Notes: generated by a model from the letters alone, not told the origin. DNA of 64,000 nt from Candidatus Omnitrophota bacterium (GCA_022703585.1 JAKLDJ010000005.1:5353-69352), one strand, 5' to 3'. Positions 36,649 through 60,078 are shown, counted from the first letter of the stretch. Program-made: numbers and translations.

Positions 36649-36652
36649 AAAA

Positions 36653-36728: not shown

Positions 36729-37037
36729 AAAGCATCTTCGGTAATACCGAAAATCGGGGCCCGTAGCAAAGCCTTTAGAAGACAGGGGTGCTTGTCAGAC
36801 CCCCAAAAAAATAAATGCCAAGTCATCATGAAAAGCTGAACTGCTCATGATCATTTCATTTGTTACGTTTGTTGCTGTTGCTGGTTTTTCTTTTCCTTTG
36901 TGAAAAGAATCCTGGTTGCGTGCGTTAGAAAAAGCAATATTGCTATCACTTATCCCTACGCTTCGCTCCGGGATTATTTTTCTTAACGCTTACGTTCGCC
37001 CTTACGGGCTCCGTAAGCGTAACGAAAAATAAAAAGA

Positions 37038-38620
<1,583 letters not shown>

Positions 38621-38797
38621 TAATGACTTGGCTTTAAAACATTTAAACAGGCAATAAAATTTTCAAAGAGCAAAAAAAATTCAGGCGGCATGCCTTGCGG
38701 CATGCCGCAGAATTTGGAGAATACGTTTTAAATGATTAAGATCGAAGTGGTTCTTGAATTACTTCTCGCTGAAGTGTTCCTTCGTTGAGGTGGCACA

Positions 38798-43256: not shown

Positions 43257-44396
43257 TTACGTTTCTTCCGGAATAATTTTCTTTAAGAACAACGCTAAAA
43301 CCAGCATTAAAATTCCGATCACCAAAAACGTGATCCCAAAACTCTTTTCAACAAATACCCCGCTAATAAAAACGCCGATCCCTCCAGCGACAAACCGCAA
43401 ACTTGAATTTAAACTCGCCAGCTCGGAGCGGTATTGTTCGGGAAAATCGGTCAGCACGGTTGAAATCCCGTTATGCCCAATACTCCAACCGGCCGCGAAT
43501 ACGACAAAAATAACGGCGACCGCCTTGGCCGGAAGCATTGCCGATAACGCAATCGTGGCCGCCGCTAGCATCACGATTCCGGCCTGGCAAGACTTAATAC
43601 GTCCCTTTTTGTCTGTCAAATAACCGCCCACATTCTGCCCCACGGCACCGCTAACAGCAATTAAAGCAAATAATAAGCTAATAGTCAACTGATTAAAATG
43701 ATACATCCTGGACAGAAAAACCCCCAGCCAGCGGTCCACGCTATGATATAGTAGACTTATTATTAATATAAAGATAAATATATGTAGAATCTTCCTTTCC
43801 TTAAAAAGAATTGAATAATCTACATTTCCTTGCACCCTTCCTAAATAATCACCCCTGTCAATAAAAAGACATCCCGCGGCTACCAGCCCAATCAAGGATG
43901 GAACCAAAAAGAGCCACCGCCAAGAGGCAAAACCGCTTAGAATGATCCCGCTTAAGGCCGCGACAAAGCTAAAGCTAAAGAATAGCCCTACCACCCGGCC
44001 CCGGACGTGGTTTTCATATAATTTTCCGATTAAAATAAGTCCCAAAGGAACCACCCCTGCCCCGGCGATACCCGTAATAATGCGTAGTATCAAGATCGGC
44101 TCAATGGCATTTGCTTTGGCGCACAGAAAATTTGCCAACGAGAATACGACCATACTCGTCACCATGATCGTTTTAATGGAAAATCGTTTTGCCAGAGGCG
44201 CATAAAGGAGGGCACCCAGGCCGTAAGGAATCATGTAAAAGGGGATGATTTTTGAGGCGACGAGATCGAGAATGCCCAAGTCGTTGCTGATGGATGGAAT
44301 GGTGGCGGTTAACGCCGAGACATTAAAGGAAATAGCCGCGTTTTGCAGGCAGAGAAGAAAAAGGATAAATTTTTTGTGGTTGATTTTGAACCTCAC
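43257..44396 (-). CDS. MFS transporter
   Basis: 379 aa with ~12 predicted TM helices and an MFS-like loop motif. Confidence 0.7.
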   Translation of the reverse strand: MRFKINHKKFILFLLCLQNAAISFNVSALTATIPSISNDLGILDLVASKIIPFYMIPYGLGALLYAPLAKRFSIKTIMVTSMVVFSLANFLCAKANAIEPILILRIITGIAGAGVVPLGLILIGKLYENHVRGRVVGLFFSFSFVAALSGIILSGFASWRWLFLVPSLIGLVAAGCLFIDRGDYLGRVQGNVDYSILFKERKILHIFIFILIISLLYHSVDRWLGVFLSRMYHFNQLTISLLFALIAVSGAVGQNVGGYLTDKKGRIKSCQAGIVMLAAATIALSAMLPAKAVAVIFVVFAAGWSIGHNGISTVLTDFPEQYRSELASLNSSLRFVAGGIGVFISGVFVEKSFGITFLVIGILMLVLALFLKKIIPEET

Positions 44397-44961: not shown

Positions 44962-45882
44962 TTATAGTTTCTTATGCCGCCAAATCAAAAAGACTCCAAT
45001 CGCAGAAAAAGCCGCGAGCCCGACGATAAGCCAAAAAGAGGCACCCGACAGCTCCTGCTCCAAGGGCAATTTTACATTCATGGAAAAAACGCTGATAATC
45101 AAGGTGGGAAGCATGATGCAAATCATGACCAGGGTCAATTTCTTGATCAAGATATTCAGATTATTACTGACGACAGATACCCAGGCATCCATCATGCTGG
45201 AAAGAACCTGTGAATGCGTATTGGCCTGCTCGTAACACTGGCTGTTCTCGATAGCGACATCATCCAAGTATTCTATGTCTTCGGGATTAAAATTGAATTT
45301 GGCCACATTGGCTTTGATTTTTTCAATCACTTTTGAGTTGGAGCTGATCGATTTCAAGTAATAAACCAGGCTCTTCTCGAGATTAAACATGTTATGCAAA
45401 TGTTTATTTTCCATGGAGGTATTGATCTTTTCTTCCAACTCATCCGAAATCGCCTGGATAACCCTCAAATGTTCCTCAAAATGCGAAATGCAGCGGTGAA
45501 TAACTTTTAACAGGATATTTTGAATCGACCGGACTTTGATAAATTGCCGTCCGTCAAAGATAGGGGCATCCTCGGCTAAAAGAATAATCAATTTATCCGG
45601 GAAAATAAACAGGCCCATCGAAGATATCTTGAGTAAAAAATTGTCGTCGGAGCAATAACGTTTGGGCTGTTTGATAATGAGCATGGTATGCCCTTCGTCA
45701 AATTCCATCCGTCCGATCTCGTTCGGGTCCAAAGCCGAGGTGATATTGTACTGGTCGATTTTTAGCTCTTCGATCAGATATTTTTTTTCTCCTTCATCAG
45801 GAGCGATATACACCAGCACAGGGCATTCGCTTGAATCATTTTCTACAAGTTTACCGTCGATCAATTTAAACTTTTTTAACAT
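44962..45882 (-). CDS. CorA-like divalent cation transporter
   Basis: 306 aa. It has a cytoplasmic N-domain and two C-terminal TM helices with a GMN-like motif (FSMNVKLP). Confidence 0.65.
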   Translation of the reverse strand: MLKKFKLIDGKLVENDSSECPVLVYIAPDEGEKKYLIEELKIDQYNITSALDPNEIGRMEFDEGHTMLIIKQPKRYCSDDNFLLKISSMGLFIFPDKLIILLAEDAPIFDGRQFIKVRSIQNILLKVIHRCISHFEEHLRVIQAISDELEEKINTSMENKHLHNMFNLEKSLVYYLKSISSNSKVIEKIKANVAKFNFNPEDIEYLDDVAIENSQCYEQANTHSQVLSSMMDAWVSVVSNNLNILIKKLTLVMICIMLPTLIISVFSMNVKLPLEQELSGASFWLIVGLAAFSAIGVFLIWRHKKL

Positions 45883-46851: not shown

Positions 46852-47088
46852 TTAATTTACCCCTTTCGCTTTTAAAATGCTAATAATCTCATTAAACGTA
46901 TGCGTCTTTTTAACCTCGTTGTCGGCCAGCGGGATACCAAACTCTTTCTTGAGCCCGACGGAAATCTCCACCATTTCAGTCGAGTCAATCCCCAGCGCCT
47001 GGTCGAGCTTGACGTCCGGCTTTATCTCATTGGGGTTAACATCCAGGACTTTCTTAAAAATGCCTTTTGCTCTATCTTCAACACTCAT
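46852..47088 (-). CDS. Acyl carrier protein
   Basis: 78 aa; LGIDSTEMVE is the phosphopantetheine-attachment motif (DS(L/T)). Confidence 0.8.
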   Translation of the reverse strand: MSVEDRAKGIFKKVLDVNPNEIKPDVKLDQALGIDSTEMVEISVGLKKEFGIPLADNEVKKTHTFNEIISILKAKGVN

Positions 47089-47112: not shown

Positions 47113-48345
47113 TTATGGCTTCTCAACAATTAATGCGCAGTTAATCCCTCCGCGGCCTCGGGAGATAATCAGCGCTTTTTTAATTTCCTTAGCCTGCGCC
47201 TTATTCGGACAGTAATCGAGATCACATTCCGGGTCAGACGTCGAATAGTTGATCGTCGGCGGAACCAGGCTGTTTTCCATCGCCAGAATCGTGGTAATAA
47301 GATCCAGCGCGCCGGAAGCCCCCAGAAGATTTCCAAACATCGATTTAGGCGCCGAGACGGGAATTTTTTTGGCATGACTGTTAAACGCCAGCTTGATCCC
47401 CTTAGTCTCGGTCGTGTCCCCAATCTTTGTTCCTGCCCCGTCCGCACAAATGTAATCAATTTCAGAAGGGCTTACTCCCGCATCATCAAGGGCTATCTTA
47501 ATGGCACGGCCCAGCTCTTTGCCGTCGGAAGCCGGTTCAATGTGGTCCACGCCGTCGGTGGTCGTGCCGTAGCCGATAATATTAGCGTACACACGGGCAT
47601 TTTTTTGTTTAACCCGTTCGCGCGACTCTAAGATCAAAATACCCGCCCCTTCACCGATCGCAAATCCGTCGCGGGTTTTATCAAAAGGCCGATAGGCGCT
47701 TTGGGGTAAATGATTGCGCTTGGTCAGCATCCCTGAGGTATTGCAGCACAAAAGCGCATACGGCGACACCGGAGCCTCCATGCCTCCGGCTAAAATAAAA
47801 TCATTCTTGCCGTGATTAAGATTTTTTGCGGCATAGGCAATCGCCATTAAAGAACTTGCCCGGTCGGAAACAACGGTCTTGCTGTAACCCTTGATACCGT
47901 ACTGAATCGAAATTTGCCCCTGCGGCGCCGCCGGAAACCAGGCTGAAGCCATAAATGGACTCACCCCTTCACGGCCCTCCAAATACATATCACGCAGTTC
48001 GGTTTCGGCATACAGCCAGCCGCCGATCGCGTTACCCGCAAAGATCCCGACGCGCTTTAAATCTTCCTTGGTCATATCAAGCTTGGCATCTTGAATCGCC
48101 ATTTCGGAAGCCACCAGCGCCATATGCGAAAAAAGGTCGATCTTCTTTAAAAGTCTCGATGAGACCTGGCTGTAAACTTCCAGCTCCTTGACCTGACCGG
48201 CAATATGCGACGGATAAAGCGATGACTCAAACCGATCGATATTGCTCACCATTGAGTGCCCGGATTTGATATTGGCCCAAAAGACCCTTTTGTCAATACC
48301 GCTCGGGGACACAACCCCCAAACCTGTAATCGCTATTTTTTCCAT
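47113..48345 (-). CDS. Chain-length-factor-like beta-ketoacyl synthase paralogue (KS-beta) with all three catalytic residues substituted
   Basis: It has the KAS fold throughout. The Cys position reads SDRASSL (no Cys). The His positions read CADGAGTKIGD (His to Asp) and FGNLLGASGA (His to Asn). The likely start is Met 48345 (MEKIAITGLGVV), preceded by RBS AAGGAAGG. The ORF-track start at 48429 would overlap the upstream KS by 73 nt. Confidence 0.7.
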   Translation of the reverse strand: MEKIAITGLGVVSPSGIDKRVFWANIKSGHSMVSNIDRFESSLYPSHIAGQVKELEVYSQVSSRLLKKIDLFSHMALVASEMAIQDAKLDMTKEDLKRVGIFAGNAIGGWLYAETELRDMYLEGREGVSPFMASAWFPAAPQGQISIQYGIKGYSKTVVSDRASSLMAIAYAAKNLNHGKNDFILAGGMEAPVSPYALLCCNTSGMLTKRNHLPQSAYRPFDKTRDGFAIGEGAGILILESRERVKQKNARVYANIIGYGTTTDGVDHIEPASDGKELGRAIKIALDDAGVSPSEIDYICADGAGTKIGDTTETKGIKLAFNSHAKKIPVSAPKSMFGNLLGASGALDLITTILAMENSLVPPTINYSTSDPECDLDYCPNKAQAKEIKKALIISRGRGGINCALIVEKP

Positions 48346-48356: not shown

Positions 48357-49616
48357 TTATTTTTCGAACCTTCTTAGAACCATCGACGAATGCACGCCGG
48401 AAAAACCGCTTGAGGTCTTCAGCATGCAATTGATTTTCTTGTTTCTCGCCTTATTGGGAATATAATCCAAGTCGCACTCGGGATCGGGAAATTCCTGATT
48501 GATTGTCGGAGGCAATATATTGCGCTCGAAAATAAGAGCGCAAACCGCCAGCTCCACCCCATTAGCCGCCGCCAAGGGGTGGCCAATCATTGATTTTAGA
48601 GAACTAATCGGAATCTTGTAGGCGTATTCCCCGAGCGCTTGTTTATAGGCATTGGTTTCAAAGACATCGTTTTGCCGCGTCGAAGAACCGTGGGCATTAA
48701 TATAATCAAGGTCTTCGGGTTTAACATTCGCGTCTTTAAGAGCGAGCAAAATCGAGTCACGCATGGCATCGCCTTCGGATGGCAAATCCGTCATATGAAA
48801 GGCATTGCAGGTCGTACCGAATCCTAAAACCTCACAATAGATCCGTGCCCCGCGGTTTAACGCATGCTGGAGTTCTTCCAAGATTAGAATCCCGCAGCCC
48901 TCGGACGCCACAAAACCGTTTCTCTTGGCATCAAACGGCCTCGAGGCCTTTTCCGGCATATCATTGTGCACCGATAAAACGTTGACCACATCAAAAGCCC
49001 CCAGCGTAATCGGAGTAATCGGCGCTTCACTGGCCCCCGCGATCATAACATCGGCGTCCCCGTCCTGGATTGCTTCTAATGAAAACCCAACCGCATCCGT
49101 TCCGGCGGTGCAACCGGTTGAAATCGTATTACAAACACCCTTTAAGCCATACTTAGCGGAAATTTCGCTTGACGGCGTATTAAACATCGCGGCATCGTAG
49201 AGATCCGGCCTTACGCCCTTAGGGTCAATGGGTAATTTGCCGCTGTCCGTCACCAAAGCAAATTCTTCTTCCATGTATTTCGTTCCGCAAATTGCGTTGG
49301 CTAATGAAATACCCATTCGCTCTTTGTTCACTTTTGATAAATCCAATTTTGCATCCTCCAGTGCCTCGCGTGCCGCCACCATGGCAAACTGGACATAGCG
49401 ATCCATACGGACGACCTCGTCGGAATTAAGCCCCGATTTAAACGGGTCGAAATCCCTGACCTGGGCGGCAATTTTTGTATTAAACATCGAGACATCAAAT
49501 TCGGTCACCCGTTTAACGCCCGAGACACCGTTGATCATCCCCTTCCAGCAGGCCTCGTTTCCGACGCCATTAGGGGAAATAAGCCCTACCCCTGTTACCA
49601 CCACTCTTCTTTTCAT
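48357..49616 (-). CDS. Beta-ketoacyl-ACP synthase (active KS-alpha-like)
   Basis: 419 aa with catalytic Cys (ISTGCTAGTDA) and both His (NAHGSSTRQND; IGHPLAAANG). Confidence 0.85.
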   Translation of the reverse strand: MKRRVVVTGVGLISPNGVGNEACWKGMINGVSGVKRVTEFDVSMFNTKIAAQVRDFDPFKSGLNSDEVVRMDRYVQFAMVAAREALEDAKLDLSKVNKERMGISLANAICGTKYMEEEFALVTDSGKLPIDPKGVRPDLYDAAMFNTPSSEISAKYGLKGVCNTISTGCTAGTDAVGFSLEAIQDGDADVMIAGASEAPITPITLGAFDVVNVLSVHNDMPEKASRPFDAKRNGFVASEGCGILILEELQHALNRGARIYCEVLGFGTTCNAFHMTDLPSEGDAMRDSILLALKDANVKPEDLDYINAHGSSTRQNDVFETNAYKQALGEYAYKIPISSLKSMIGHPLAAANGVELAVCALIFERNILPPTINQEFPDPECDLDYIPNKARNKKINCMLKTSSGFSGVHSSMVLRRFEK

Positions 49617-50279
49617 TTATTTTCTCCGTTTCAGTTTCTTTGCTTTAGAAATCTTTGATTTTGCACCGACCGCTTTTTTATTTTTTTGCGCCCCCAAAAC
49701 TCCTTCGAGGCGTTCGAGCTTAAACCGGTTTCCCCCCATGGGACAGGTAAGCGTATTGATCTGATTTTGCGGATTCATATGTTTATAATTGGCGCCATGA
49801 TACAAGGCATACACCGCCGGAAACATCATGGCATAGGCCGTGGCACAAAAGTTCGCAGGTGTTTTTAATCCGTCGATCTCGAAGGTTTGCCCCAGTTTGT
49901 AACCGCAGGTGCAACCCTTTCCCATAACCTCATAGATGCTGGCCCGCAATTTTGGCTTCTTGTTTTTATCCGCCTGATTCTTTTTCGTTACTACCACATT
50001 GCCGTCTGCATTCAAAAGCTCGACCAAGAACTTCATCTTGGCGTGATCCGGACAGGTCACGATCGCGGACGAGGCATTCTCTAAATCGTTAAATTGCGCC
50101 CCAAAGGTTAGCGCGTACAAGGTGGGAAAGACATTCTGCGCGATTCCTAAACAAAAATGTTTGGGGGCATGGGTAAAATCATCCAGAATAAATTGCTGCC
50201 CGACAAAATAGTCGTGGTAGCAATAACCGCTATTCTCGACGATTGTTAGCCTTAATTTTGGAAATATACCTGGGGCCAT
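49617..50279 (-). CDS. Tandem-duplicated TIGR04076-like domain protein
   Basis: 220 aa with two homologous halves. The first is KLRLTIVENSGYCYHDYFVGQQFILDD...CLGIAQNVFPTLYALTFGAQF. The second is KLRASIYEVMGKGCTCGYKLGQTFEIDGL...FCATAYAMMFPAVYALYHGANY. The family call is from memory of the TIGR04076 pattern and is tentative. Confidence 0.45.
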   Translation of the reverse strand: MAPGIFPKLRLTIVENSGYCYHDYFVGQQFILDDFTHAPKHFCLGIAQNVFPTLYALTFGAQFNDLENASSAIVTCPDHAKMKFLVELLNADGNVVVTKKNQADKNKKPKLRASIYEVMGKGCTCGYKLGQTFEIDGLKTPANFCATAYAMMFPAVYALYHGANYKHMNPQNQINTLTCPMGGNRFKLERLEGVLGAQKNKKAVGAKSKISKAKKLKRRK

Positions 50280-50290: not shown

Positions 50291-51289
50291 TTAAATAAGA
50301 TTAAATTCTTTCTTTATTTCTTCGACTGAAAAAAACTTTCCGGAATTTTCAACCTCATGGACCATCTCAACGACCTTGCGGTTTAGCGGGACTTTAAGCC
50401 CGCTATGCTTCGCCAAAAGAACTATTTCGCCGTTAATATAATCGATCTCACTCACCTTTTTACGCAGAATGCTTTGTAAAATCGAGCCGTAGAGCGGCTC
50501 TTTGCTTAAAGTCGTCATTGTCTTGTTGATAATCCCCGCCGCTTGGTCAACCGGCATAGTTACCAGCCCCAGTATTCGCTCGACGGGGAAGTGCGGCAAA
50601 GAAACAAGCCCGACACCGACATTGTGCACAGCCTCAACGCCTTCTTTGAGCAATAAAACGCTCAAACGGCACAAATGCATATCCGCATAAGTTTCCTGCA
50701 TCGGCTTACCGGTTAACGCCGGCAGGCAGTTGTTGAAATTAACAAAAAGTTTCAGCCATTTCATGCCCATGATATCGGGCGCGATAACAACCGCGAATGC
50801 CTTGCGCACAATTTCATAAATGTCCGAAACGACATGATCATTCATTGAAAACGGTTTTCCGATAACCCAGTCACCCTCAAAGTTAAACGTCACTTCGCCG
50901 GGATTGGTGTAGGTTGCCCCAAACATAACAATGCTGGATACAATCTTTTCCTTTTCTAAATGCCCGCTTAAAATATTGTCCGCCTGAACACCGTTTTGGG
51001 TAGTCAGAATAATTGCATTATCCAGAAACTCGCAATTGTCCGTGTAAGCAGTCTCAAGGTCCTGGGTCTTAACCGTAAAAATAACCAAATCGTACTCGCG
51101 GTCAAGCCGCACCAAGCTGTTTAAATGAAAAACCTCCTCGCCTCGGACACCTTTAATACGCAAACCGCTGCTGCGGATCGCCTGCACCTGTTGCGGCTTA
51201 CCGATCAAGGCAACGTCTTCTCCTGCCTTGGATAAATACGCCGCCACCACCGACCCGATGGCCCCCGCTCCGATAACAGCAATTTTCAT
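50291..51289 (-). CDS. 2-dehydropantoate 2-reductase (ketopantoate reductase/ApbA) family oxidoreductase
   Basis: 332 aa; it has the N-terminal Rossmann motif MKIAVIGAGAIGS and an overall KPR-like length. Confidence 0.6.
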   Translation of the reverse strand: MKIAVIGAGAIGSVVAAYLSKAGEDVALIGKPQQVQAIRSSGLRIKGVRGEEVFHLNSLVRLDREYDLVIFTVKTQDLETAYTDNCEFLDNAIILTTQNGVQADNILSGHLEKEKIVSSIVMFGATYTNPGEVTFNFEGDWVIGKPFSMNDHVVSDIYEIVRKAFAVVIAPDIMGMKWLKLFVNFNNCLPALTGKPMQETYADMHLCRLSVLLLKEGVEAVHNVGVGLVSLPHFPVERILGLVTMPVDQAAGIINKTMTTLSKEPLYGSILQSILRKKVSEIDYINGEIVLLAKHSGLKVPLNRKVVEMVHEVENSGKFFSVEEIKKEFNLI

Positions 51290-51834
51290 TGCTCTTTTAA
51301 TTCCTTTTCTTTCTTGACCGCATAGTCTCTTAGCGCTGCCAAGATCATCTTAATATTGCTATCATGAAGCTTTTTAAATAAAACCGGCCACAAAATCTTG
51401 TTAACAATTCCCTGGATCTGACAGTCCATGTAATAATCAACCCGGGTGCCGTTCAACCGCTCATCAATCACCACCCACTCTTTGCCCTTAAACATGCCGT
51501 CCAAGAAGGTGCGCTCGATTTCGCGGTTCGGCACTAATTTTGTTACCTCGACTTTCCAATGAGGGCCTAGCGGCAGCAGCACTTTTTGCTCAAACTGCGT
51601 TCCCACACGCAATTCCCCCTCGGTCAGCCGGGTAAATTTCATCGCGCATTTTTTTGGCCACCAGGACGATTCACCCCAAAGGATAACCTCTGGCGCCACA
51701 ATGCTCTCCGGCACCTCGATAAAAACAAAATGATGATTGATGTTGTCGTGTTTTGTTTTTTTAAACATAAAAAATCTTTCCGGCTGCTCAATCTTACCTG
51801 GTCTCGTATTTCTTGTAATCAAATCCCGCATCAC
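51286..51834 (-). CDS. SRPBCC-like protein (possible polyketide cyclase/aromatase-type)
   Basis: 182 aa. It overlaps the downstream gene by 4 nt. The Bet v1-like assignment is by pattern only. Confidence 0.35.
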   Translation of the reverse strand: MMRDLITRNTRPGKIEQPERFFMFKKTKHDNINHHFVFIEVPESIVAPEVILWGESSWWPKKCAMKFTRLTEGELRVGTQFEQKVLLPLGPHWKVEVTKLVPNREIERTFLDGMFKGKEWVVIDERLNGTRVDYYMDCQIQGIVNKILWPVLFKKLHDSNIKMILAALRDYAVKKEKELKEQ

Positions 51835-52081
51835 CTAACAGCTTAACCATAAGGCTGTAAAACGCGATAGGCACTTCGGTAAAAAAAGCCCGCACGATAT
51901 CCTGCTCCTCGACGAGCTTGGCACTGCGTTCGCGGGCGTTGATCTCGGCTTTTTTGTAGACAACATTACGGGCAATATCCCGGTGAAAAAGCGGCAGCCG
52001 CGCAATAACATTTTCAAATTTCTTACGCGCCTCGCTATCCCAGGGAGATTGTTGGGAAGCATTTGCTTGCGTATTCGGCAT
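51794..52081 (-). CDS. PCP_red (protochlorophyllide reductase subunit-B C-terminal-like) domain protein
   Basis: 95 aa; WDSEARKKFENVIARLPLFHRDIARNVVYKKAEINARERSAKLVEEQDIVRAFF matches the W..EA...L..IP.F.R..AR...E..ARE consensus of the PCP_red domain. Confidence 0.55.
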   Translation of the reverse strand: MPNTQANASQQSPWDSEARKKFENVIARLPLFHRDIARNVVYKKAEINARERSAKLVEEQDIVRAFFTEVPIAFYSLMVKLLGDAGFDYKKYETR

Positions 52082-52122
52082 AAAAGAATTCCTTTCCTAT
52101 GGCTCAATAAAACTAATTCAAA

Positions 52123-53592
52123 TTATACGTACAGGTCTTTCTTGGTCGAGGTGGCCTCAAACTTTGATATATTACTCATAAAATCCTGCACGCAAAGTTT
52201 GGCTAAATTGTCATAATCGCTTTCCATAATCCGGTGAATGCGTTCAGGCTTTGAGTAAAATTCACGCATGCACCAGCTGCCCAAACGCCCCACGTCTTCT
52301 ATAGATAAATGTTTTGTGGGGATTACAGGATGAAGAAAATCCCATTCCTTAAGATTGATCTTGCGCGGATTGACCCAGCCGTTATCAATGGCCCTCTTCC
52401 AGAGAACCGAACCCGGGACCGGAGTCACGTAATCCAGCGCCAGGATATCCGGATCGATTTGGTCGGCGACATGCGCGCGCTCTTTAATAGATGCTTCGGT
52501 GTCGTTTTCCATGCCGATCAAAACCGTGCCCACCGTCGCGATATTGTTTTCGCGTAATTTATCGATTGTGGTTTTAATCTGCTGGAGCGTAACCTTCTTA
52601 CCGATTTTCTGTAATTCCGCGTCCGAGGACACCTCCACCCCCACCAAACCCATGAAAAGACCGGCCTTGGCCATTAAGGGATACAGGTCCAGTTGGTTCG
52701 TCCAGTCGTCGGCCCTCCCTAAACAAACCCATTTGATCTTGATGCCTCTTTTAATTTTTTCTTCGCAAAATTCTTTCATGACCTCACGGCTGACGTTAAA
52801 GGCATCATCTTGGATAACGACAACCTTAACACCGTATTTCTTTTCGAGCAATTCCAGCTCATCAACGATTCTTTGGGCCGAATGCCCGCGCCAGGAAGTA
52901 AAATCCTTTTTACTCGAACGCGGATCATACAGGCTCCATTCATAACAGAAATTGCATCCCCCCGGACATCCGCGTGACGTCATAAGTTCCGCAAACGGTT
53001 TCCAGTAAGTATGCCCGACGTAGCGGTCCATGGGAAATAAATCGTACGCCGGCATCGGCAGGACATCAATATTAGGAATAAGCGAACGATGCGGCCCGAC
53101 GACGACCTTTCCGCCTTCTCGCGAGGCCAAACCCGGAATATCCTTAAATTCCCGGGTTTTGTTTTTGTGATTTGAAATCAGATCCGCGAGAGTTAATTCT
53201 CCTTCGCCGATCAAAATATGGTCGATTTGAGGATAATCCTCCATGCATTCAACGTAAAATGCCGAATACCACAAGCCGCCCATAACCGTGATCGTCTTGG
53301 GTAAAACCTCTTTGATGCGCTTCGCGGTTTCATTAAAATGCCACAGGACCGCGAGACCGCCGGTCGAATGCAGCAGATCGCCAAAAACAGCAAAATCCGG
53401 CTTTATCTTTTTAACCTCGTCGATCATTTGATCGTAGGTCAAGTCAAGCGCCTTGGCATCCAGGACCGCAACTTCGGCCAGGCCTTTTTCTCTGATATAG
53501 GCCGCGAGCTGGGCATAGAATTGGTTAGCTGCTTTATGATTGCCGTGCGTTACCCATGAACCCATCGGTGGGGTAATAAATAAAACTTTCAT
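52123..53592 (-). CDS. B12-binding domain radical SAM enzyme
   Basis: 489 aa. The N-terminus is a cobalamin-binding Rossmann-like region. The radical SAM cluster motif is SRGCPGGCNFC (CxxxCxxC). Confidence 0.8.
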   Translation of the reverse strand: MKVLFITPPMGSWVTHGNHKAANQFYAQLAAYIREKGLAEVAVLDAKALDLTYDQMIDEVKKIKPDFAVFGDLLHSTGGLAVLWHFNETAKRIKEVLPKTITVMGGLWYSAFYVECMEDYPQIDHILIGEGELTLADLISNHKNKTREFKDIPGLASREGGKVVVGPHRSLIPNIDVLPMPAYDLFPMDRYVGHTYWKPFAELMTSRGCPGGCNFCYEWSLYDPRSSKKDFTSWRGHSAQRIVDELELLEKKYGVKVVVIQDDAFNVSREVMKEFCEEKIKRGIKIKWVCLGRADDWTNQLDLYPLMAKAGLFMGLVGVEVSSDAELQKIGKKVTLQQIKTTIDKLRENNIATVGTVLIGMENDTEASIKERAHVADQIDPDILALDYVTPVPGSVLWKRAIDNGWVNPRKINLKEWDFLHPVIPTKHLSIEDVGRLGSWCMREFYSKPERIHRIMESDYDNLAKLCVQDFMSNISKFEATSTKKDLYV

Positions 53593-53675
53593 CTTCGAGA
53601 ACTCCTTATCTGATTTTTAAAGATCGAAATAACCTTAGTCATGATAAAAATAATCGCTGCACGCGGGCTTTTTAG

Positions 53676-55154
53676 TCAAAACCAGCTGGCGGCCAACGGC
53701 ATGCCACCCGGGGTTTTATCGACGCAAACATGTTTCACTTGCGTGTATTCAAAGAGCCCTTCCAGGCCCAATTCCCGCCCCATGCCGCTTTGTTTATAAC
53801 CGCCAAACGGCGCCTCATTATAAAAACCGCCGTAGGTGTTTACCCAAACCGTCCCGGCCTTGATTTTCTTTGCCACACGGTTTGCTTTGTCTAAATCCCT
53901 GGACCAAACACATGCCGCGAGGCCAAATTTTGTATCGTTGGCGATTTTGACCGCCTCGTCTTCGCCGGAGAATTTGATAACAGCCAAGACCGGCCCAAAT
54001 ATTTCCTCCTGGGCAATCGCCATAGAATTATCAACGTCAGCAAAGATGGTCGGCTCGATGTAAAAACCTTTTTCTCTTCCCTGAACAACCGCGCGTTTCC
54101 CTCCGCACATCAATTTAGCCCCTTGCGCGGATCCTTTTTGTACAAAATTTAATACGTTTTGCAACTGTTGCTCATTGGCCAAGGGCCCAAAATCCGTCGA
54201 GTAATCGCGCGCATCGCCTACTTTTAACTTCTTGGTTCGCTCAACCAGGGCGAGCAAAAACTTATCATAAATTTTATCTTCCAGCAAAAGTCTGGAGCCG
54301 GCCGTGCACATTTGTCCCTGATTCATAAAAATAGCGGACATGGTACCGCCTAAGGCAGCGTCAAAATCACAATCGGCAAAAACGATGTTGGGCGATTTGC
54401 CGCCTAGTTCCAGAGTTAACTTTTTTGTATTCAGGGCGGCAAATCGCATGACCTCTTTGCCGGTTTCGGTGCCGCCGGTAAAACTGATCTTATCTACCAA
54501 GGTGCTGCTGATTAATTCAGCGGTTACATTGTGGTCACGGCTGGTAATAAAATTAAAAACGCCTTTAGGCAATCCGGTTTCGTTTATAATTTCCGCCAGC
54601 CGTGCCGTCGACACACTCGCCTGCGACGAAGGCTTAAAAATAACCGTGTTTCCGGCTATTAACGCCGGGGCTACCTTCCAGCCAAACATAATTAAAGGAT
54701 AATTCCAGGGGATAATACAACCGACCACCCCCACCGGCTCGCGCAGCAAAGTACTTTTAACCGGAGCGGCCACGTTAATTTCTTTTTCTAAATCTAAAGC
54801 AATATTGCCGAAATATTCAAATGTATCGGCGCAGGTGGGGACATCGATAAAGGTCGCGTGCTTTGTCGTCTTGCCGACGTCTAAAGTTTCCAATTCGGCT
54901 AATTCTTTTGAATATTCGCGGATTTTTTGCGCTATCGAAATTAAATATTTTCCCCGCTCTTTGACCGATAGCCGGGACCAGGCGCCGTGATCAAATGATG
55001 CACGCGCAACCTCAATCGCTGTCTTCATATCGGCAACCGTCGCATCGGCCACTTGTGCAAAGACTTCCCCGTCCGAAGGATTAACAGCATCAAAATATTT
55101 ATTGCTGCCGGATGCCTTTATTTCACCGTTAATAAACAGTTGATATTTTTTCAT
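53676..55154 (-). CDS. NAD(P)-dependent aldehyde dehydrogenase
   Basis: 492 aa; it has an ALDH glutamate region (LELGGKSP) and the catalytic Cys region (NQGQMCTAGSR). Confidence 0.85.
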   Translation of the reverse strand: MKKYQLFINGEIKASGSNKYFDAVNPSDGEVFAQVADATVADMKTAIEVARASFDHGAWSRLSVKERGKYLISIAQKIREYSKELAELETLDVGKTTKHATFIDVPTCADTFEYFGNIALDLEKEINVAAPVKSTLLREPVGVVGCIIPWNYPLIMFGWKVAPALIAGNTVIFKPSSQASVSTARLAEIINETGLPKGVFNFITSRDHNVTAELISSTLVDKISFTGGTETGKEVMRFAALNTKKLTLELGGKSPNIVFADCDFDAALGGTMSAIFMNQGQMCTAGSRLLLEDKIYDKFLLALVERTKKLKVGDARDYSTDFGPLANEQQLQNVLNFVQKGSAQGAKLMCGGKRAVVQGREKGFYIEPTIFADVDNSMAIAQEEIFGPVLAVIKFSGEDEAVKIANDTKFGLAACVWSRDLDKANRVAKKIKAGTVWVNTYGGFYNEAPFGGYKQSGMGRELGLEGLFEYTQVKHVCVDKTPGGMPLAASWF

Positions 55155-55157
55155 TAA

Positions 55158-56177
55158 TTATTCAATTCCTGCGTTGGTCCAAACTTCAAAAATCCGGCTG
55201 CAGGGCGCGTACCATTTTGAGATCCTGGCAAAATCGCCGCGCAGATTCATTTTCTTCTGCGTCGTCGCTACAAAGGGATCGATTTCGCGGTTAAATACAG
55301 CCCGCCACACACCCTCGGAAGCCGAAATCAGAAATTCGGCATTTTCGTCGCTGCCGGTTTTTATGATCCGTCCGTCTTTAAAACTAAAGCTGTATACCTG
55401 GCCGGTTTCGTTGAGCTTAACCGCCAAATCCATGGTCATTTGCGTCTTTTGGCCGAGTTCTTTAAGCGGTGCGTCATTATTGACAAGTTTTACAATTTCA
55501 TCCATCTGCTCTTTTGAAAAGAGTTTGTACTTCTTGGTTTGCGACCCCTGGCCCGTCGCCTGGTGACTGACGGCTGGTGACTGTTGACTGACGGCTGTTG
55601 ACTCCGCCTTATACAATCGGCTTATCACGTCAATCTTCACCGCCTCTTCAAGTCCCTGGATAAGCAGAAAACAGTCAAAAAGAGTGTTCCCCATCGCCAC
55701 AGCTCCGTGATTGCGTAAAACCATAATGCTATTTTTCTTAAGCGCCGCGATAACCGGAGCAACATCCGTGACTGACGGCGTATGCTGCTCGACCGATTCA
55801 ATCTTTCCCAAATAAAGCCTCGCCTCAAAGGTCGACGGTGTTAATTCGACATTGACACTATAAAATGCATTTGTATACGTTGTGTGAGTATGGATAATGG
55901 CTTTTGCATCGGGAAAATTATTATAGATTTCTGTATGTAGCGGTTTCTCGCTTGAAGGCTTACCCTCACCGATAACATTGCCTTTAAGGTCAAGCAGGAC
56001 AATCTCGTCCGCGCTTAATCTCCCCAGGCAGGTATTGCGCCCGGTTAAAAGAATTTTATCCCCATCAACGCGGCAGCTGATGTTGCCGTTTAAACCTGTT
56101 GCCAGATTCTTATCCCAGAGAAGTTTCCCGGCTTCGATCATGTCATTCTTTAATTGCAGAATTGATTTTTCGCTCAT
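55158..56177 (-). CDS. Class II aldolase/adducin-family protein (MtnB/fuculose-phosphate-aldolase-like) fused to a C-terminal SCP2-like domain
   Basis: The N-terminal half has the class II aldolase metal-binding HTH (AIIHTHTTY). The C-terminal ~110 aa is SCP2-like (DENAEFLISASEGVWRAVFNREIDPF...LRGDFARISKW). The likely start is Met 56177 (MSEKSILQ), overlapping the upstream stop as ATGA. Confidence 0.65.
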   Translation of the reverse strand: MSEKSILQLKNDMIEAGKLLWDKNLATGLNGNISCRVDGDKILLTGRNTCLGRLSADEIVLLDLKGNVIGEGKPSSEKPLHTEIYNNFPDAKAIIHTHTTYTNAFYSVNVELTPSTFEARLYLGKIESVEQHTPSVTDVAPVIAALKKNSIMVLRNHGAVAMGNTLFDCFLLIQGLEEAVKIDVISRLYKAESTAVSQQSPAVSHQATGQGSQTKKYKLFSKEQMDEIVKLVNNDAPLKELGQKTQMTMDLAVKLNETGQVYSFSFKDGRIIKTGSDENAEFLISASEGVWRAVFNREIDPFVATTQKKMNLRGDFARISKWYAPCSRIFEVWTNAGIE

Positions 56178-56656
56178 TGATAAATCCTCGTTATGTAAAC
56201 CTGCGGAACCCATTCGACCAAAGGAACGTATCCCTTAATTCCTTTGGGGGCTACCCGTGTACCGTTAAAGTACAATATCTCCTCACTTTTCCCCACCGAA
56301 ACAGTTTTACGGCGAGAAGTAACGAGATTAACCGCTACTTTGTGCCGCTTGGCCAAGACCGCCAAAATAAGAGATCCGATATCGCAGGTGGCGCCATTTT
56401 TATAACAAGCCTGACAACCGATCCAGACTTCTTTAACCAGACCTTTAAAAAACAGAAATCCCGCCATGTTATCCGCGATAACAACCGGTTTGATCTTTCG
56501 TTTGAGCAACTCTTGAGATAAAATCTTTGCCCCTTCCAGGCGCGGCCTCGACTCCAGGATAAAAACCGATTTAGCCCCCTTTTTCTTAAATTGATCCAAG
56601 AGAGAACCTTCCACAAGGCCGTGAACAAGAATAATCGATTTTTTCTTAATTAACAT
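56174..56656 (-). CDS. Truncated eIF-2B/MtnA (e2b2) family paralogue (C-terminal domain only)
   Basis: 160 aa. It matches the e2b2 C-domain pattern: VHGLVEGS...ILESRPRLEGAKILSQEL...VVIADNMAGFL...VWIGCQACYKNGATCDIGSLILAVLAKRH. Confidence 0.55.
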   Translation of the reverse strand: MLIKKKSIILVHGLVEGSLLDQFKKKGAKSVFILESRPRLEGAKILSQELLKRKIKPVVIADNMAGFLFFKGLVKEVWIGCQACYKNGATCDIGSLILAVLAKRHKVAVNLVTSRRKTVSVGKSEEILYFNGTRVAPKGIKGYVPLVEWVPQVYITRIYQ

Positions 56657-57626
56657 TGATCGCTATGGGTTGTGTGATCAGCTCATGGGGTACAACATCA
56701 AATCCGGGATAGAAACCTTCCACCCCTGGAGACACAACTTTCTTCCCGGAAAAACTCAGCAATTCTTCCGGGTCTCTTATTTCAATAGGGATATCCTCCC
56801 CACGCGCAATCTTTTTTGACGGCTGCGTCAGGGCATGAAAGGGAATACCAAACTCCTTAGCTAAAACCGCGATTTGGTAGGTCCCGATTTTATTGGCAAT
56901 ATCCCCATTGGCGCAGGAACGGTCAGAACCGACGATAACCCGGTTAATCTTGTTGCCGCGTAACAAAAGCCCGACCGCATTATCGGCGACCAAGGTCACA
57001 TCCGCCCCCGCCAACTTTAATTCCCAGCAGGTCAGCTTGGCCCCCTGAAAATAGGGACGGGTTTCGGTGGCAAAAAATCGCACCGTCTTTCTTTGCGCCT
57101 TGCATATCCGCGCCGCCATAGCCAGCTCACCGCTGACGTTGCAATGAGTCAGAATCGTCTCTTTATCCTGAATGACCGAGGCGATTTGTTCGACACGCTG
57201 TAATCGGCGAATCCTAATCCCCATTAAAAAACCGTTAATATTCTGGCAAAGGAATCCTACTAAATCTTTTTTCTGCGCTACCGCCTGATGCGCCCAGCCT
57301 ACAACCATAGCCGTCACTTCAGAAAAAGGAAATGTAGGCCGGCTGGCGTTTAAGGCTGTGGCGGTTTTTTGTAAAACTTTTAGCAATACTTTTGGGGAAC
57401 TCTTTTTATTTTTATCCAGTACCAGCAAAAACGTATTTAAAACCACCAAAAATTGCCCGAAGGCACGCGTCTTCATCTGGCGGATACATGCAACAGCCTG
57501 CTTGGTATTTCTTACCTTGACGTAGACTAGCCGCCCGGGCAAAAGGGTTTCATCAATGACCCAAAGGGTATTGCCCTTTAACTGCGCCGGCCAAAAGAGA
57601 GGAGATTCCCAAACCTTTTTTTGCAT
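56646..57626 (-). CDS. e2b2 family sugar-phosphate isomerase (methylthioribose-1-P / 5-deoxyribose-1-P isomerase-like, MtnA-like)
   Basis: 326 aa. It has ILTHCNVSGELAMAARI...ATETRPYFQGAKLTCWEL and the signature GSDRSCANGDIANKIGTYQIAVLAKEFGIPFH. Confidence 0.7.
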   Translation of the reverse strand: MQKKVWESPLFWPAQLKGNTLWVIDETLLPGRLVYVKVRNTKQAVACIRQMKTRAFGQFLVVLNTFLLVLDKNKKSSPKVLLKVLQKTATALNASRPTFPFSEVTAMVVGWAHQAVAQKKDLVGFLCQNINGFLMGIRIRRLQRVEQIASVIQDKETILTHCNVSGELAMAARICKAQRKTVRFFATETRPYFQGAKLTCWELKLAGADVTLVADNAVGLLLRGNKINRVIVGSDRSCANGDIANKIGTYQIAVLAKEFGIPFHALTQPSKKIARGEDIPIEIRDPEELLSFSGKKVVSPGVEGFYPGFDVVPHELITQPIAINVN

Positions 57627-57630
57627 CCGA

Positions 57631-58395
57631 TTACTTCCCTTCCAATTTCTTGATTAAATTAAGTGCAATGGAAATCATCGAGCCCTCAGCCATATAATAC
57701 ATCGGATTCATAAAGCCCATTTCTCCGGTCATAACATTGTCACTGACCGCTAAGATAACCGCCGCCCGCACCTTATACAGCTGGGCAATGGTTAGAAAAG
57801 TCGAGGTCACCATATCGACTGCGATCGCGCCTTTTTGTGCTGCCTTACCCACATGCTCGCGGGTCTCGCGCAAGATCGCATCCGTCGACCAGGCCTTGCC
57901 TTGATGAATAGTCTGTCCAGTTGCCTTGGCAACTTCTAAAAGAGATTCGGTTAAACCCTTGTCAGCCACCGTCTCAAATTTTTCATCCACATAGTACGGC
58001 GTAACCCCGTCGCCGCGTAACGCACTATCGGCAACAATCAAATCACCGACTTTAATATCTTCAGATAACGCGCCGCAACTGCCGATACGGATCATGCAAT
58101 TGGCCTGCGCATTACAAAGAATCTCAGTGGTAATAGCCGTATCCGCGGAAAAACGCCCGCCGTTAATCGCCGTCACCTTCGTGCCTTCGAAAGTTCCGGT
58201 GAACATCGAATATTCCATAAAGCTAAAATTCTTTATCGGATTCTCGATTTTCTTTAAAAGACTGTCCAACCGCTCTTTTGGGCCCGGAACAATAGCGTAT
58301 TTTCCGATATCGCTGGGCCGAAGCTGAACCATGCCCATCAGATCACGGCCGGTTAAATGAACATCTTTTTTCATAACATGAGGCGCGCTGGACAT
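57631..58395 (-). CDS. PNP_UDP_1 family nucleoside phosphorylase (purine/MTA/5'-deoxyadenosine phosphorylase-like)
   Basis: 254 aa; IRIGSCGAL resembles the GTCGA motif of DeoD/MtnN-type enzymes. The fold-family assignment is by pattern. Confidence 0.65.
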   Translation of the reverse strand: MSSAPHVMKKDVHLTGRDLMGMVQLRPSDIGKYAIVPGPKERLDSLLKKIENPIKNFSFMEYSMFTGTFEGTKVTAINGGRFSADTAITTEILCNAQANCMIRIGSCGALSEDIKVGDLIVADSALRGDGVTPYYVDEKFETVADKGLTESLLEVAKATGQTIHQGKAWSTDAILRETREHVGKAAQKGAIAVDMVTSTFLTIAQLYKVRAAVILAVSDNVMTGEMGFMNPMYYMAEGSMISIALNLIKKLEGK

Positions 58396-58419
58396 AGACT
58401 ATTTCCTTTCGCTTTGGTT

Positions 58420-59946
58420 TTAATTTTCTTTAACAGAATCTTTTTCGCTGATTTGCTTTAATAATTCTTTATCGATCTTTCCCACCCGGTTCTTAGCCAA
58501 GTCCTCGACGATCACGATCGAATGCGGTACCTTAAAATGCGCCAAATGCTCCCGCGCAAAATATCTTAGATCCTCCGCCGTCATGCTATCTTTTTGCTTC
58601 AAAACAACGAAGGCCTTAACCGCCTCCCCTCTTACCTTGTCCGGAACTCCGATCACCGCTACTTCGGCAACCGCCTCATGCTTGTGCAGTGCCGCCTCGA
58701 CTTCCGGCGCGTAAACAATTTGCCCGCCGACTTTAATCATCTCTTTCTTGCGCCCAACGATAAACAAAAACCCTTCCCCATCAAAACGACCCAAATCACC
58801 AGTATGAAACCAGCCATTACGTTTTAATTCATTGGTAGCTTCCGGGTCTTTATAATACCCTTCCATCACGGTCCAGCCACGGATGACAATTTCACCGATC
58901 TCGCCTGCGGCGACTTCGCGGTCATCTTCGTCAAAAATCTTAATCTCGCAGTGGGGTGATGGTTTGCCGACACTAGCGATTTTATCACTGCCCAGCGGTG
59001 TAACCGTGTTCGGCGGGCAGGTCTCAGTCATACCCCATCCGTTTAGGAAATGCGCGTTGGGGCAATACTGATGAAACCGTTTTAATATATCCGGCGAGCT
59101 CGGAGCGCCAAATACAACAATCCACCGCAAGGAAGATAGATTGAATTTCTCTATTTCTTTTAGCGATAAGAATGCCATGTACATCGCCGGGACAACATGA
59201 AAACAGGTAACTTTATACCGCTCGACATTACGCATAAATTCAATCGGATTAAAGCGGTCCATTAAAACTAAGGTGATGCCGAAGATAATACAGTTTTGAA
59301 CATAGATAAGCCCGGCAATATGGCTCAAAGGAAGAGCGCAAAGCTTTACATCTTTTTCTGTCAAATCCACAAAATATTCCATCGCCTTCGGCGAACCTTC
59401 GAGATGTTTGTAATTAAGCAAAATCCCCTTGGGCTTCCCGGTTGTGCCGGAGGTGTACATAATTAAGGAGAGATCACTATCGTTAACTTGCGCCTTCGGC
59501 GGTTGGGCGCTTGCCTTTGAGATAATTTCTTGATACGAAACCATCCCTGGCTCCTGCCCCTGAAGGAGAATCACCGTCTTAAGAGAAGAAACCGATTGCT
59601 TGATTAAAGAAAGCGCCAGGCCTTCTCGGGGCATGGCAATAAGATACTTCGTCTCCGAATGACTAAGGCAGGAAATAAGTTCATCTTCTTTGAGCATAAA
59701 ATCAAGAGGAACGCCCACCGCGCCCAGACAGAAAATCGCGAGATAGCTATAAATATATTCAGGGCAGTTCGGCAGATAAATCGCGACCTTATCGGATTTC
59801 TTAACACCGCAGTCAGCCAATGCATTGGCAAGCCGAAACACGTTCTCCTTAAGCCGGGAGAACGAAATTTCCGTTTCCTTGAAGACAATTGCCGTTTTTG
59901 ACGAGAAACGGTTTGACGTATCTTCTAGTAAATGCTTGATTTCCAT
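58420..59946 (-). CDS. AMP-dependent synthetase/ligase (acyl-CoA or acyl-ACP ligase)
   Basis: 508 aa. It has the AMP-binding motif MYTSGTTGKPKG, the GWGMTE motif, and the C-terminal GWFHTGDLGRFDGEGFLFIVGRKKEMIKVGG. Confidence 0.85.
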   Translation of the reverse strand: MEIKHLLEDTSNRFSSKTAIVFKETEISFSRLKENVFRLANALADCGVKKSDKVAIYLPNCPEYIYSYLAIFCLGAVGVPLDFMLKEDELISCLSHSETKYLIAMPREGLALSLIKQSVSSLKTVILLQGQEPGMVSYQEIISKASAQPPKAQVNDSDLSLIMYTSGTTGKPKGILLNYKHLEGSPKAMEYFVDLTEKDVKLCALPLSHIAGLIYVQNCIIFGITLVLMDRFNPIEFMRNVERYKVTCFHVVPAMYMAFLSLKEIEKFNLSSLRWIVVFGAPSSPDILKRFHQYCPNAHFLNGWGMTETCPPNTVTPLGSDKIASVGKPSPHCEIKIFDEDDREVAAGEIGEIVIRGWTVMEGYYKDPEATNELKRNGWFHTGDLGRFDGEGFLFIVGRKKEMIKVGGQIVYAPEVEAALHKHEAVAEVAVIGVPDKVRGEAVKAFVVLKQKDSMTAEDLRYFAREHLAHFKVPHSIVIVEDLAKNRVGKIDKELLKQISEKDSVKEN

Positions 59947-60078
59947 CGTTCCTCCAAATATAGTTAAATTTTACTAGTTAGATTTTATTACAGAAACGAG
60001 GTTTGTCAAGAAATTATTGAAAATTTTATTTAAAATAAAAACTGAAGGATTGACTTTCGAAGATGTGGATTACAGCAG

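Follow-up and report, generated by a model that had tools for sequence, protein, structure and literature searches.

A dihydroxyacetone phosphate shunt-type gene module joined to an acyl ligase in Omnitrophota, with a proposed role in acyl supply

A 64,000-nucleotide stretch of DNA from a Candidatus Omnitrophota bacterium (GCA_022703585.1, JAKLDJ010000005.1:5353-69352; hereafter the window, in whose coordinates all positions are given) carries four consecutive genes at 55158-58395. An earlier note on this DNA had described them as a PNP_UDP_1-family phosphorylase, a full-length MtnA-like sugar-1-phosphate isomerase, a truncated paralogue of that isomerase and a class II aldolase fused to an SCP2 domain, and Pfam and NCBIfam model scans of the cluster proteins agreed with these classes and positions. 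The four genes are flanked by genes for an AMP-forming acyl ligase and an aldehyde dehydrogenase (ALDH), and the same cluster, all of it on the minus strand, encodes a B12-binding radical S-adenosylmethionine (SAM) enzyme together with a ketosynthase (KS), a chain length factor (CLF)-like partner and an acyl carrier protein (ACP). From this gene content we favor the reading that the module couples salvage to the supply of a starter acyl unit.

In transcription order, the cluster runs from a PadR-family regulator through the AMP ligase, phosphorylase, isomerase, half-isomerase, aldolase-SCP2, ALDH and B12 radical SAM genes to a DUF2621-like small protein, a 182-aa protein that matched no family, an ApbA-type reductase, a TIGR04076 protein and a FabF-like KS. 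The KS is followed by the CLF-like partner, the ACP, a PF04199 'cyclase', CorA, an SRPBCC protein, an MFS transporter and an SDR.

Enzymes encoded at the locus

The isomerase and the aldolase were placed by their hidden Markov model and Protein Data Bank (PDB) scores. The full-length isomerase (56646-57626; Pfam IF-2B, E = 1.3e-49) is an MtnA-like aldose-1-phosphate/ketose-1-phosphate isomerase. Its best NCBIfam match was the MtnA subfamily with 230.5 bits against a cut-off of 271, followed by a second model with 212.4 against 279; because both scores fall under their cut-offs, the enzyme is best regarded as a divergent MtnA-type branch. It aligned over its full length with MtnA structures (E values from 1e-41 to 1e-35, including 1T9K at 2.6e-41 and 6A34 at 1.6e-38), compared to approximately 1e-22 for ribose-1,5-bisphosphate (R15P) isomerase structures and approximately 1e-13 for eIF2B subunits, in agreement with the earlier assignment to MtnA rather than to eIF2B-like regulators. 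The R15P isomerase model gave 111 bits against a cut-off of 314. The catalytic Cys (THCN) and Asp (GSDR), as well as the ETRPxxQG and NKIGTY motifs, are conserved in all 72 family members examined, and the enzyme is predicted from its sequence to be active.

The next gene (56174-56656) encodes a 160-aa paralogue of the C-terminal half of the isomerase, the start of which overlaps the isomerase stop by 11 nt. The protein matched IF-2B profile positions 103-271 only (E = 7e-20) and is therefore truncated as previously described. It begins just past the catalytic Cys motif and has Gln (GCQA) at the position of the catalytic Asp and CD at that of NK; without the Cys motif and the Asp, the half-isomerase cannot be expected to catalyze the reaction. 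A database search recovered 339 homologues, of which those listed have lengths of about 140-230 aa and those with an organism name all derive from Omnitrophota. Given these homologues and its presence in 64 of 64 syntenic loci with enough upstream sequence (the basis of all counts out of 64 below), the half-isomerase is not a decaying fragment. An exhaustive profile-free search also revealed isomerase relatives of 467-515 aa in other lineages, in which one chain joins a full isomerase to a half-isomerase-like domain. Because the split pair corresponds to a single polypeptide in these lineages, the isomerase and half-isomerase probably work together. An apparent half-isomerase/aldolase fusion of 508 aa in one locus (L009) was rejected as an artefact of a masked run of N.

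The aldolase-SCP2 open reading frame (ORF) spans 55158-56213 (Aldolase_II, E = 9.7e-41; SCP2, E = 3.5e-5). The database start of the protein is Met13 of this ORF at coordinate 56177, giving 339 aa (P0001), and the protein is 100% identical to one from a Candidatus Omnitrophota metagenome-assembled genome. The class II, metal-dependent aldolase domain (55593-56177; Pfam Aldolase_II) contains the FucA-type set of three metal-ligand His and a Glu (His96, His98, His157 and Glu77), invariant in 24 homologues, and FucA-type aldolases were its top Foldseek matches. In profile searches, the aldolase scored 83.1 bits with Streptococcus FucA (4C24), 82.6 with Aquifex aq_1979, 71.7 with YgbL/OtnC-type decarboxylases and 53.8 with Bacillus thuringiensis DrdA (6BTD; 46.7 in another comparison). 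Among NCBIfam models, those for MtnB gave 64-66 bits against cut-offs of 137-226 and that for the haloarchaeal ribulose-1-phosphate aldolase gave 65 against 300; FucA models also matched.

The Pfam match of the SCP2 domain (55161-55532) is weak at E = 3.5e-5, and the fold was backed by structure comparison, which bears out the fusion proposed in the earlier note. An AlphaFold2 (AF2) model of the C-terminal 124 residues (predicted local distance difference test score 89) matched Thermus thermophilus SCP2 (2CX7) in Foldseek with a template modeling (TM) score of 0.85-0.87, followed by UbiJ, the SCP2 domains of alkylsulfatases and eukaryotic SCP2. The SCP2 domain is the best-conserved stretch of the aldolase protein and is fused to it in every lineage seen.

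The phosphorylase (57631-58395; Pfam PNP_UDP_1, E = 4.9e-35) is a divergent enzyme of the DeoD/uridine phosphorylase type. Ranked against the PDB, it matched Streptococcus pyogenes uridine phosphorylase (3QPB, 95.9 bits) ahead of T. thermophilus purine nucleoside phosphorylase (77.7 bits) and the Sulfolobus 5'-methylthioadenosine (MTA) phosphorylase (63 bits). The top NCBIfam models were likewise those of uridine phosphorylase and DeoD, whose scores of 108 and 97.7 bits fall far short of the respective cut-offs; the MTA phosphorylase/MtnP model TIGR01694 reached 15.6 bits against 274.85 and the HpnG model 50.3 against 187.1. By these scores, the protein falls in the hexameric DeoD/uridine phosphorylase branch and appears not to be an MtnP orthologue. 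Aligned to what we take to be the Escherichia coli DeoD sequence, the phosphorylase keeps the equivalents of Arg24, Arg87, Ser90 and Ser203-Asp204, among them phosphate-binding Arg and Ser residues and the DeoD-type Asp, with Met in place of Arg43 and Val in place of the ribose-binding Glu181. The family motifs NGGRF and VDMV are conserved.

Immediately upstream of the phosphorylase gene lies that of the AMP-forming acyl ligase (58420-59946; AMP-binding, E = 7.6e-89), the best NCBIfam match of which was PRK06187, long-chain-fatty-acid-CoA ligase, with 472.5 bits against a cut-off of 476. In two species (L049 and L082, 61% identity), the ligase and phosphorylase form one 773-aa ORF with no stop between them. 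On the other side of the module, the gene after the aldolase encodes an aldehyde dehydrogenase, as previously noted (53676-55154; Aldedh, E = 7.8e-173); it is of the NAD(P)-dependent, non-acylating kind, and its best matches were BADH/KauB-type enzymes.

The synthase genes partly resemble those of a minimal type II polyketide synthase (PKS). The KS (48357-49616) has Cys-His-His and the ACP (46852-47088; NCBIfam acyl carrier protein, E = 1.6e-11) has its Ser in an LGIDS motif, while the CLF-like partner (47113-48345), FabF-like as is the KS, is an inactive KS with Arg at the Cys/Gln position and Asp in place of His. As the CLF lacks the Gln, as well as the Cys and His, that serve classical CLFs in decarboxylative priming, a loaded starter unit would be needed. 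Housekeeping fabF (20231-21457), fabD (22713-23666) and plsX (23745-24740) lie elsewhere in the window, which suggests that the KS/CLF pair of the cluster is a specialized system. The CorA-type metal transporter gene between the cyclase and SRPBCC genes (44962-45882) was found only here and in two close relatives (L001 and L002). The TIGR04076 gene (49617-50279; 220 aa, two repeats), located between those of the ApbA reductase and the KS, has a tblastn counterpart in 0 of the other 82 syntenic loci and thus looks like a genome-specific insertion.

The radical SAM enzyme (52123-53592) has Radical_SAM and B12-binding domains and is BchE-like, with 218.9 bits on the BchE model against a cut-off of 481. 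The earlier note had placed it adjacent to the four-gene module; in the window, the two are separated by the ALDH gene and an 83-nt gap.

The PadR-family regulator (60079-60594; Pfam PadR, E = 1.3e-10) stands at the head of the cluster, its place in most syntenic loci. Between the PadR and ligase genes, a promoter-like site on the minus strand (59982-60009; TTGACA-16-TAAAAT, 11/12 match) was the best match of the region. Because a promoter and terminator scan of 51000-61500 gave a site total no higher than in shuffles, the site is suggestive at most. An Rfam gathering scan of the window returned only the rRNA operon and two tRNAs, with no SAM or cobalamin riboswitch in the cluster, and no canonical mtn genes were found within the 64 kb.

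A complete rRNA operon (16S, tRNA-Ile, tRNA-Ala, 23S and 5S; 33131-38624, minus strand) lies directly downstream of the cluster region. The window also has Amidohydro_2 (38925-39836), SDR (42461-43234) and MFS (43257-44396) genes, all on the minus strand. At positions 1-3382 of another locus (L083), homologues of Amidohydro_2 (44% identity), SDR (55%) and MFS form a contiguous block with an orthologous B12 radical SAM gene. On account of this block, the cluster may reach 38925, up to the rRNA operon, with a few unrelated small genes in between. Upstream of the cluster, the window encodes a secreted 474-aa protein (61471-62895, minus strand) in which a FecR domain is combined with 12 consecutive prolines and, at the C terminus, with a Hint/pretoxin-HINT domain; in L001, too, a protein with a FecR domain is encoded upstream of the cluster. 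Farther away, three genes for histidine kinases with a 7TM sensor domain at the N terminus (HisKA_7TM) occur within 10 kb (9990-11675 on the plus strand; 14318-16492 and 18543-20258 on the minus strand), interleaved with an HD-GYP-like HD/GAF protein gene (11783-12961) and adjoined by the housekeeping fatty-acid genes. An IS200-like Y1 transposase gene is found at 4351-4890 (minus strand).

Conservation of the module in Omnitrophota and Binatia

A scan of one genome per species gave 162 relatives; the best 80 were examined and all belonged to Omnitrophota-type loci. The ligase, isomerase and half-isomerase were each present in 64/64 loci and the phosphorylase in 63/64. Among loci with at least 8 kb of downstream sequence, the ALDH, ApbA reductase and KS were each found in 48/48. 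The conserved order is PadR, ligase, phosphorylase, isomerase, half-isomerase, aldolase-SCP2, ALDH, radical SAM, DUF2621, (182-aa protein), ApbA, KS, CLF, ACP and cyclase. From ligase to ALDH the genes are tightly packed, with median intergenic gaps of 17 (ligase to phosphorylase), 16, -11, -7.5 and 26 nt, compared to 107 nt before the radical SAM gene. One Omnitrophota contig (P0092) has its operon broken by HicAB, two HEPN/nucleotidyltransferase toxin-antitoxin pairs, and MORN-repeat and MamF/MmsF-like genes, with the module order kept.

The radical SAM gene behaves differently from this block. Of 59 Omnitrophota loci that cover its slot, 53 contain it and six lack it with the whole module kept; in L028, L068 and L075 the DUF2621 gene directly follows the ALDH gene, and in L013 and L017 a membrane protein gene occupies the slot. 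The divergent Omnitrophota locus L086, with an isomerase 41% identical to that of the window, has the whole cluster, but its radical SAM gene is located between those of the CLF and ACP. Radical SAM orthologues, 38-54% identical over their full length, are encoded no more than 10 kb away from the module in each of four arrangements, namely the main Omnitrophota type and those of L086, L083/L084 and L091. In the L083/L084 arrangement, the genes for the fused isomerase, aldolase-SCP2 and ALDH are preceded at a distance of 8 kb by a block of MFS, SDR, Amidohydro_2 and radical SAM genes, the last of these encoding a 47% identical protein, while the L091 radical SAM gene (38% identical) is directly upstream of the phosphorylase and fused isomerase genes. 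The radical SAM enzyme is thus a frequent yet dispensable partner of the module: the association reported earlier recurs, although not as strict adjacency.

The fused isomerases form a large family, whose organism names, where given, are Candidatus Binatia or 'Deltaproteobacteria bacterium'. In 5/5 Binatia contexts (L085, L088, L089, L090 and L092), we found an operon of MarR, an HdrD/TfrB-like CCG Fe-S protein of the thiol/disulfide type, PNP_UDP_1, fused isomerase, aldolase-SCP2 and AMP ligase. The Binatia phosphorylases and aldolases share family motifs with those of Omnitrophota, namely NGGRF, IDMV and the conserved SCP2 tail. No radical SAM, KS/CLF, ACP or ALDH gene was found in the five operons. 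In two loci, a molybdenum hydroxylase that could oxidize an aldehyde is encoded a few kilobases downstream, and in one locus the operon is adjoined by a spermidine-synthase-family gene, that is, a source of MTA. After the Binatia ligase gene comes one for a small protein that matched no family (100-109 aa, or 106-109 aa where it was considered as a carrier protein); this role was rejected, since a convincing Ser motif is also lacking. Because the core recurs as an operon in Binatia, we assign the ligase to the module itself. The invariant unit is therefore the phosphorylase, the isomerase with its dead half, the aldolase-SCP2 and the AMP ligase, usually with an aldehyde-oxidizing enzyme nearby.

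Possible functions of the module

The MtnP-type DHAP shunt consists of a phosphorylase, a 1-phosphate isomerase and a class II aldolase (PMC10986504). The earlier note had seen the same enzyme set in the window; its classes, gene order and catalytic residues hold up, while the phosphorylase does not appear to be an orthologue of MtnP and the aldolase shows no greater affinity to DrdA than to FucA or YgbL. With these qualifications, we propose that the six-gene unit of ligase, phosphorylase, isomerase, half-isomerase, aldolase-SCP2 and ALDH performs DHAP-shunt-type chemistry and converts the resulting aldehyde to an activated acid, which in Omnitrophota would most likely be consumed by the KS/CLF/ACP system. 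We hold this proposal tentatively, at somewhat short of an even chance.

In the proposed pathway, flux would run from nucleoside to thioester. The phosphorylase would strip the base from a 5'-deoxy-5'-X-nucleoside to give the pentose-1-phosphate, which the MtnA-like isomerase, probably in complex with its non-catalytic half-paralogue, would convert to the pentulose-1-phosphate. Cleavage by the class II aldolase would then afford DHAP and the aldehyde X-CH2-CHO, the latter to be oxidized by the ALDH to X-CH2-COOH. The AMP ligase would turn the acid into a CoA or ACP thioester and, in Omnitrophota, this thioester would most likely prime, or otherwise feed, the KS/CLF/ACP synthase of the same operon. 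The most likely substrates are MTA (X = SCH3) and 5'-deoxyadenosine (X = H): because the cluster has no halogenase domain, X is probably methylthio or hydrogen, as on the common by-products of SAM. The constant partners of the module are an acyl ligase and a polyketide-type synthase, which makes the supply of a building block likelier than plain waste disposal.

Several observations weigh against this proposal. The aldolase is approximately equidistant from FucA, YgbL-type decarboxylases and DrdA, so that aldol cleavage is an assumption; the phosphorylase is nearest to uridine and purine phosphorylases rather than MTA phosphorylases, and its ribose-binding Glu is gone. The ligase resembles medium- or long-chain (or steroid-acid) ligases and not acetate ligases, a poor fit to X = H. 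Together with the conservation of SCP2, the ligase type points to a substrate more lipophilic than MTA or 5'-deoxyadenosine, and a small polar substrate would explain neither the SCP2 domain nor the dead half-isomerase. In addition, neither a KS/CLF nor an ACP is encoded near the Binatia core, which rules out synthase priming as the general role of the core.

The earlier note had interpreted the module as a self-contained disposal system, in which 5'-deoxyadenosine (and MTA) from the co-operonic B12 radical SAM enzyme is removed to relieve product inhibition and the ALDH detoxifies acetaldehyde. The enzyme classes fit the DHAP shunt, and the presence of radical SAM orthologues near the module in four distinct arrangements is in line with this function. 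The radical SAM enzyme is, however, not an obligatory partner, being absent from 6/59 Omnitrophota loci and 5/5 Binatia operons, and its shifting position and the gap before its gene argue against tight coupling. It is the ligase that is constant (64/64 loci and 5/5 Binatia operons); neither it nor the half-isomerase nor the SCP2 domain, all invariant, has a role in disposal. In E. coli, it takes no more than cleavage of the nucleoside to prevent MTA and 5'-deoxyadenosine inhibition, and deletion of the DHAP shunt leaves sensitivity unchanged (PMC10986504). A disposal unit guarding this radical SAM enzyme is hence a poor fit and the claim was not sustained; we consider disposal unlikely. Ordinary nucleoside catabolism through ribose-1-phosphate and ribulose-1-phosphate to DHAP and glycolaldehyde, and onward to glycolate and glycolyl-CoA, would suit a phosphorylase that scores best on uridine phosphorylase and DeoD models and an aldolase that matches FucA models and, at 65 bits, that of the haloarchaeal ribulose-1-phosphate aldolase. 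Haloarchaea reach glycolaldehyde by way of a nucleoside phosphorylase, an e2b2 isomerase and a class II aldolase. Their route nevertheless requires a ribose-1-phosphate kinase and a ribulose-1,5-bisphosphate (RuBP) phosphatase, neither of which is there; the isomerase is MtnA-like (230 bits) and not R15P isomerase-like (111 against 314), and the setting is a PKS-type operon instead of a sugar-catabolic one, which together render this explanation improbable. Similarly doubtful is the notion that the 'aldolase' is a class II aldolase superfamily member with another activity, be it that of a dehydratase like MtnB, of a decarboxylase or of an epimerase, such that the chemistry after the isomerase departs from the DHAP shunt. 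YgbL/OtnC (71.7 bits) and Aquifex aq_1979 (82.6 bits) are about as close to it as FucA (83.1 bits), and MtnB models gave 64-66 bits; but the FucA-type Glu and three His are invariant, the ALDH that always follows in Omnitrophota (48/48) fits an aldehyde product, and the cluster encodes no enolase-phosphatase or dioxygenase of methionine salvage.

A further explanation centers on the lipid-binding SCP2 fold, the best-conserved part of the aldolase protein and a constant fusion partner of the aldolase across lineages. Here a radical SAM enzyme would adenosylate an unsaturated lipid or polyketide in the manner of HpnH and MqnE, and the phosphorylase would remove adenine in that of HpnG. The isomerase and aldolase would then release ribose carbons C1-C3 as DHAP, and the two-carbon aldehyde that stays on the lipid or polyketide would be oxidized and activated while SCP2 holds the lipid tail. 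The long-chain or steroid-acid type of the ligase and the recurrent association with a B12 radical SAM gene would be accounted for, and in L083 the module lies beside lipid-remodeling genes (MFS/acyltransferase and AMP-binding). PadR and MarR regulators often sense lipophilic acids, which also agrees with this explanation, whereas we know of no adenosyl-adding radical SAM enzyme that is B12-dependent. The logic of an adenosylation followed by loss of adenine is established for HpnH and HpnG (PMC13459092); however, the HpnG model gave 50 bits against a cut-off of 187, and hpnH, shc and mqnE are all missing from the cluster. As a general function, such trimming is disfavored by the Binatia operons and by the 10% of Omnitrophota loci that lack a neighboring radical SAM gene, and we deem this explanation rather improbable. 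In an extended version, to which we give very little weight, the ribose of SAM would serve as a two-carbon donor: an adenosyl graft on a lipophilic acceptor would be trimmed to -CH2-CHO, with the dead half-isomerase as a scaffold, oxidized, thioesterified and extended by the KS/CLF. If true, this would be a previously undescribed way to carboxymethylate an unactivated carbon.

The coupling of salvage to acyl supply, if correct, would constitute an undescribed branch of SAM by-product metabolism, in which the aldehyde is oxidized, activated and, in Omnitrophota, built into a polyketide- or lipid-like product. With no fewer than 162 species-level genomes, the module is common, and its occurrence in Candidatus Binatia is widespread as well; the two phyla are uncultured and their metabolism is poorly known. 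The conserved dead half-MtnA, the SCP2 domain on a sugar-phosphate aldolase and the obligatory acyl ligase provide handles for biochemistry. The module also offers a way in to the product of the 'ladderane-like'/type II PKS cluster that genome mining has repeatedly flagged in Omnitrophota.

Relation to known systems

Literature searches returned nothing on MtnA in split or duplicated form, on an oxidative DHAP shunt branch coupled to a ligase or on an oxidative methylthioacetate branch, and nothing relevant on an aldolase-SCP2 fusion or on an Omnitrophota KS/CLF product. Omnitrophota 'ladderane-like' clusters and KS-CLF pairs are mentioned at catalogue level (PMC9902471; PMC10132072). Two other pathways can be set aside by gene content, as Pfam scans of the cluster found no MtnC, MtnW/X or MtnD domains of the universal methionine salvage pathway, for which the MtnB models also stayed under their cut-offs, and no kinase, phosphatase or RuBisCO of the archaeal pentose bisphosphate pathway was found in the cluster.

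In the hopanoid side-chain pathway, the radical SAM step of HpnH is followed by that of HpnG, a member of the PNP_UDP_1 family that cleaves adenine off a lipid-linked adenosine (PMC13459092). Lipid handling would be shared through the SCP2 domain of the module, but the ribose is kept in hopanoids and would be cleaved here. A hopanoid link was rejected: the HpnG and HpnJ models were well under their cut-offs and the cluster has no HpnH or squalene-hopene cyclase (SHC). SHC is poorly conserved in Omnitrophota (PMC12324291).

On the synthase side, the cispentacin system (AmcF/AmcG with the adenylating enzyme AmcH priming the KS-CLF) likewise combines a Cys-His-His KS, an inactive partner, a discrete ACP and an AMP ligase, although the AmcF model gave only 155 bits against a cut-off of 325. 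To our knowledge, no adenylation-primed KS-CLF system carries a nucleoside-cleaving module for its starter. In the biosynthesis of the chloroethylmalonyl-CoA of salinosporamide A (SalL and SalT), ribose carbons of a SAM-derived 5'-deoxynucleoside become a PKS substrate, starting with a nucleoside phosphorylase. That route proceeds through a phosphatase, dehydrogenase, dehydratase and decarboxylase with no MtnA-type isomerase or aldolase, and supplies an extender unit instead of a starter.

Closer in reaction types is fluoroacetate biosynthesis, for which the order phosphorylase, isomerase, aldolase and NAD-dependent ALDH is established (PMC8945431). The Streptomyces cattleya pathway (fluorinase, FlB and subsequent enzymes) thus uses the same four reaction types as proposed for the module to convert a 5'-substituted 5'-deoxyadenosine to X-CH2-COOH, a match at the level of enzyme classes. 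The module differs in passing the acid to an AMP ligase, and Pfam found no fluorinase or chlorinase domain in the cluster proteins scanned; a pathway fed by a SAM halogenase was rejected for this reason.

The nearest counterpart is the DHAP shunt itself, represented by MtnP, MtnA and Ald2 of the Rhodospirillum rubrum type and by DrdK, DrdI and DrdA of B. thuringiensis. The module shares with it an MtnA-family isomerase that keeps the catalytic Cys and Asp and, on the proposed reading, a step at the nucleoside or pentose-1-phosphate and a metal-dependent class II aldolase that would yield DHAP and an aldehyde. Particular to the module are the DeoD/uridine phosphorylase-type phosphorylase, the extra half-isomerase, the SCP2 domain on the aldolase and the PKS-like operon. 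The fate of the aldehyde also differs: in the known shunt it is excreted or reduced to the alcohol, whereas the ALDH (48/48) and ligase (64/64) that accompany the module suggest that here it is oxidized and then activated.

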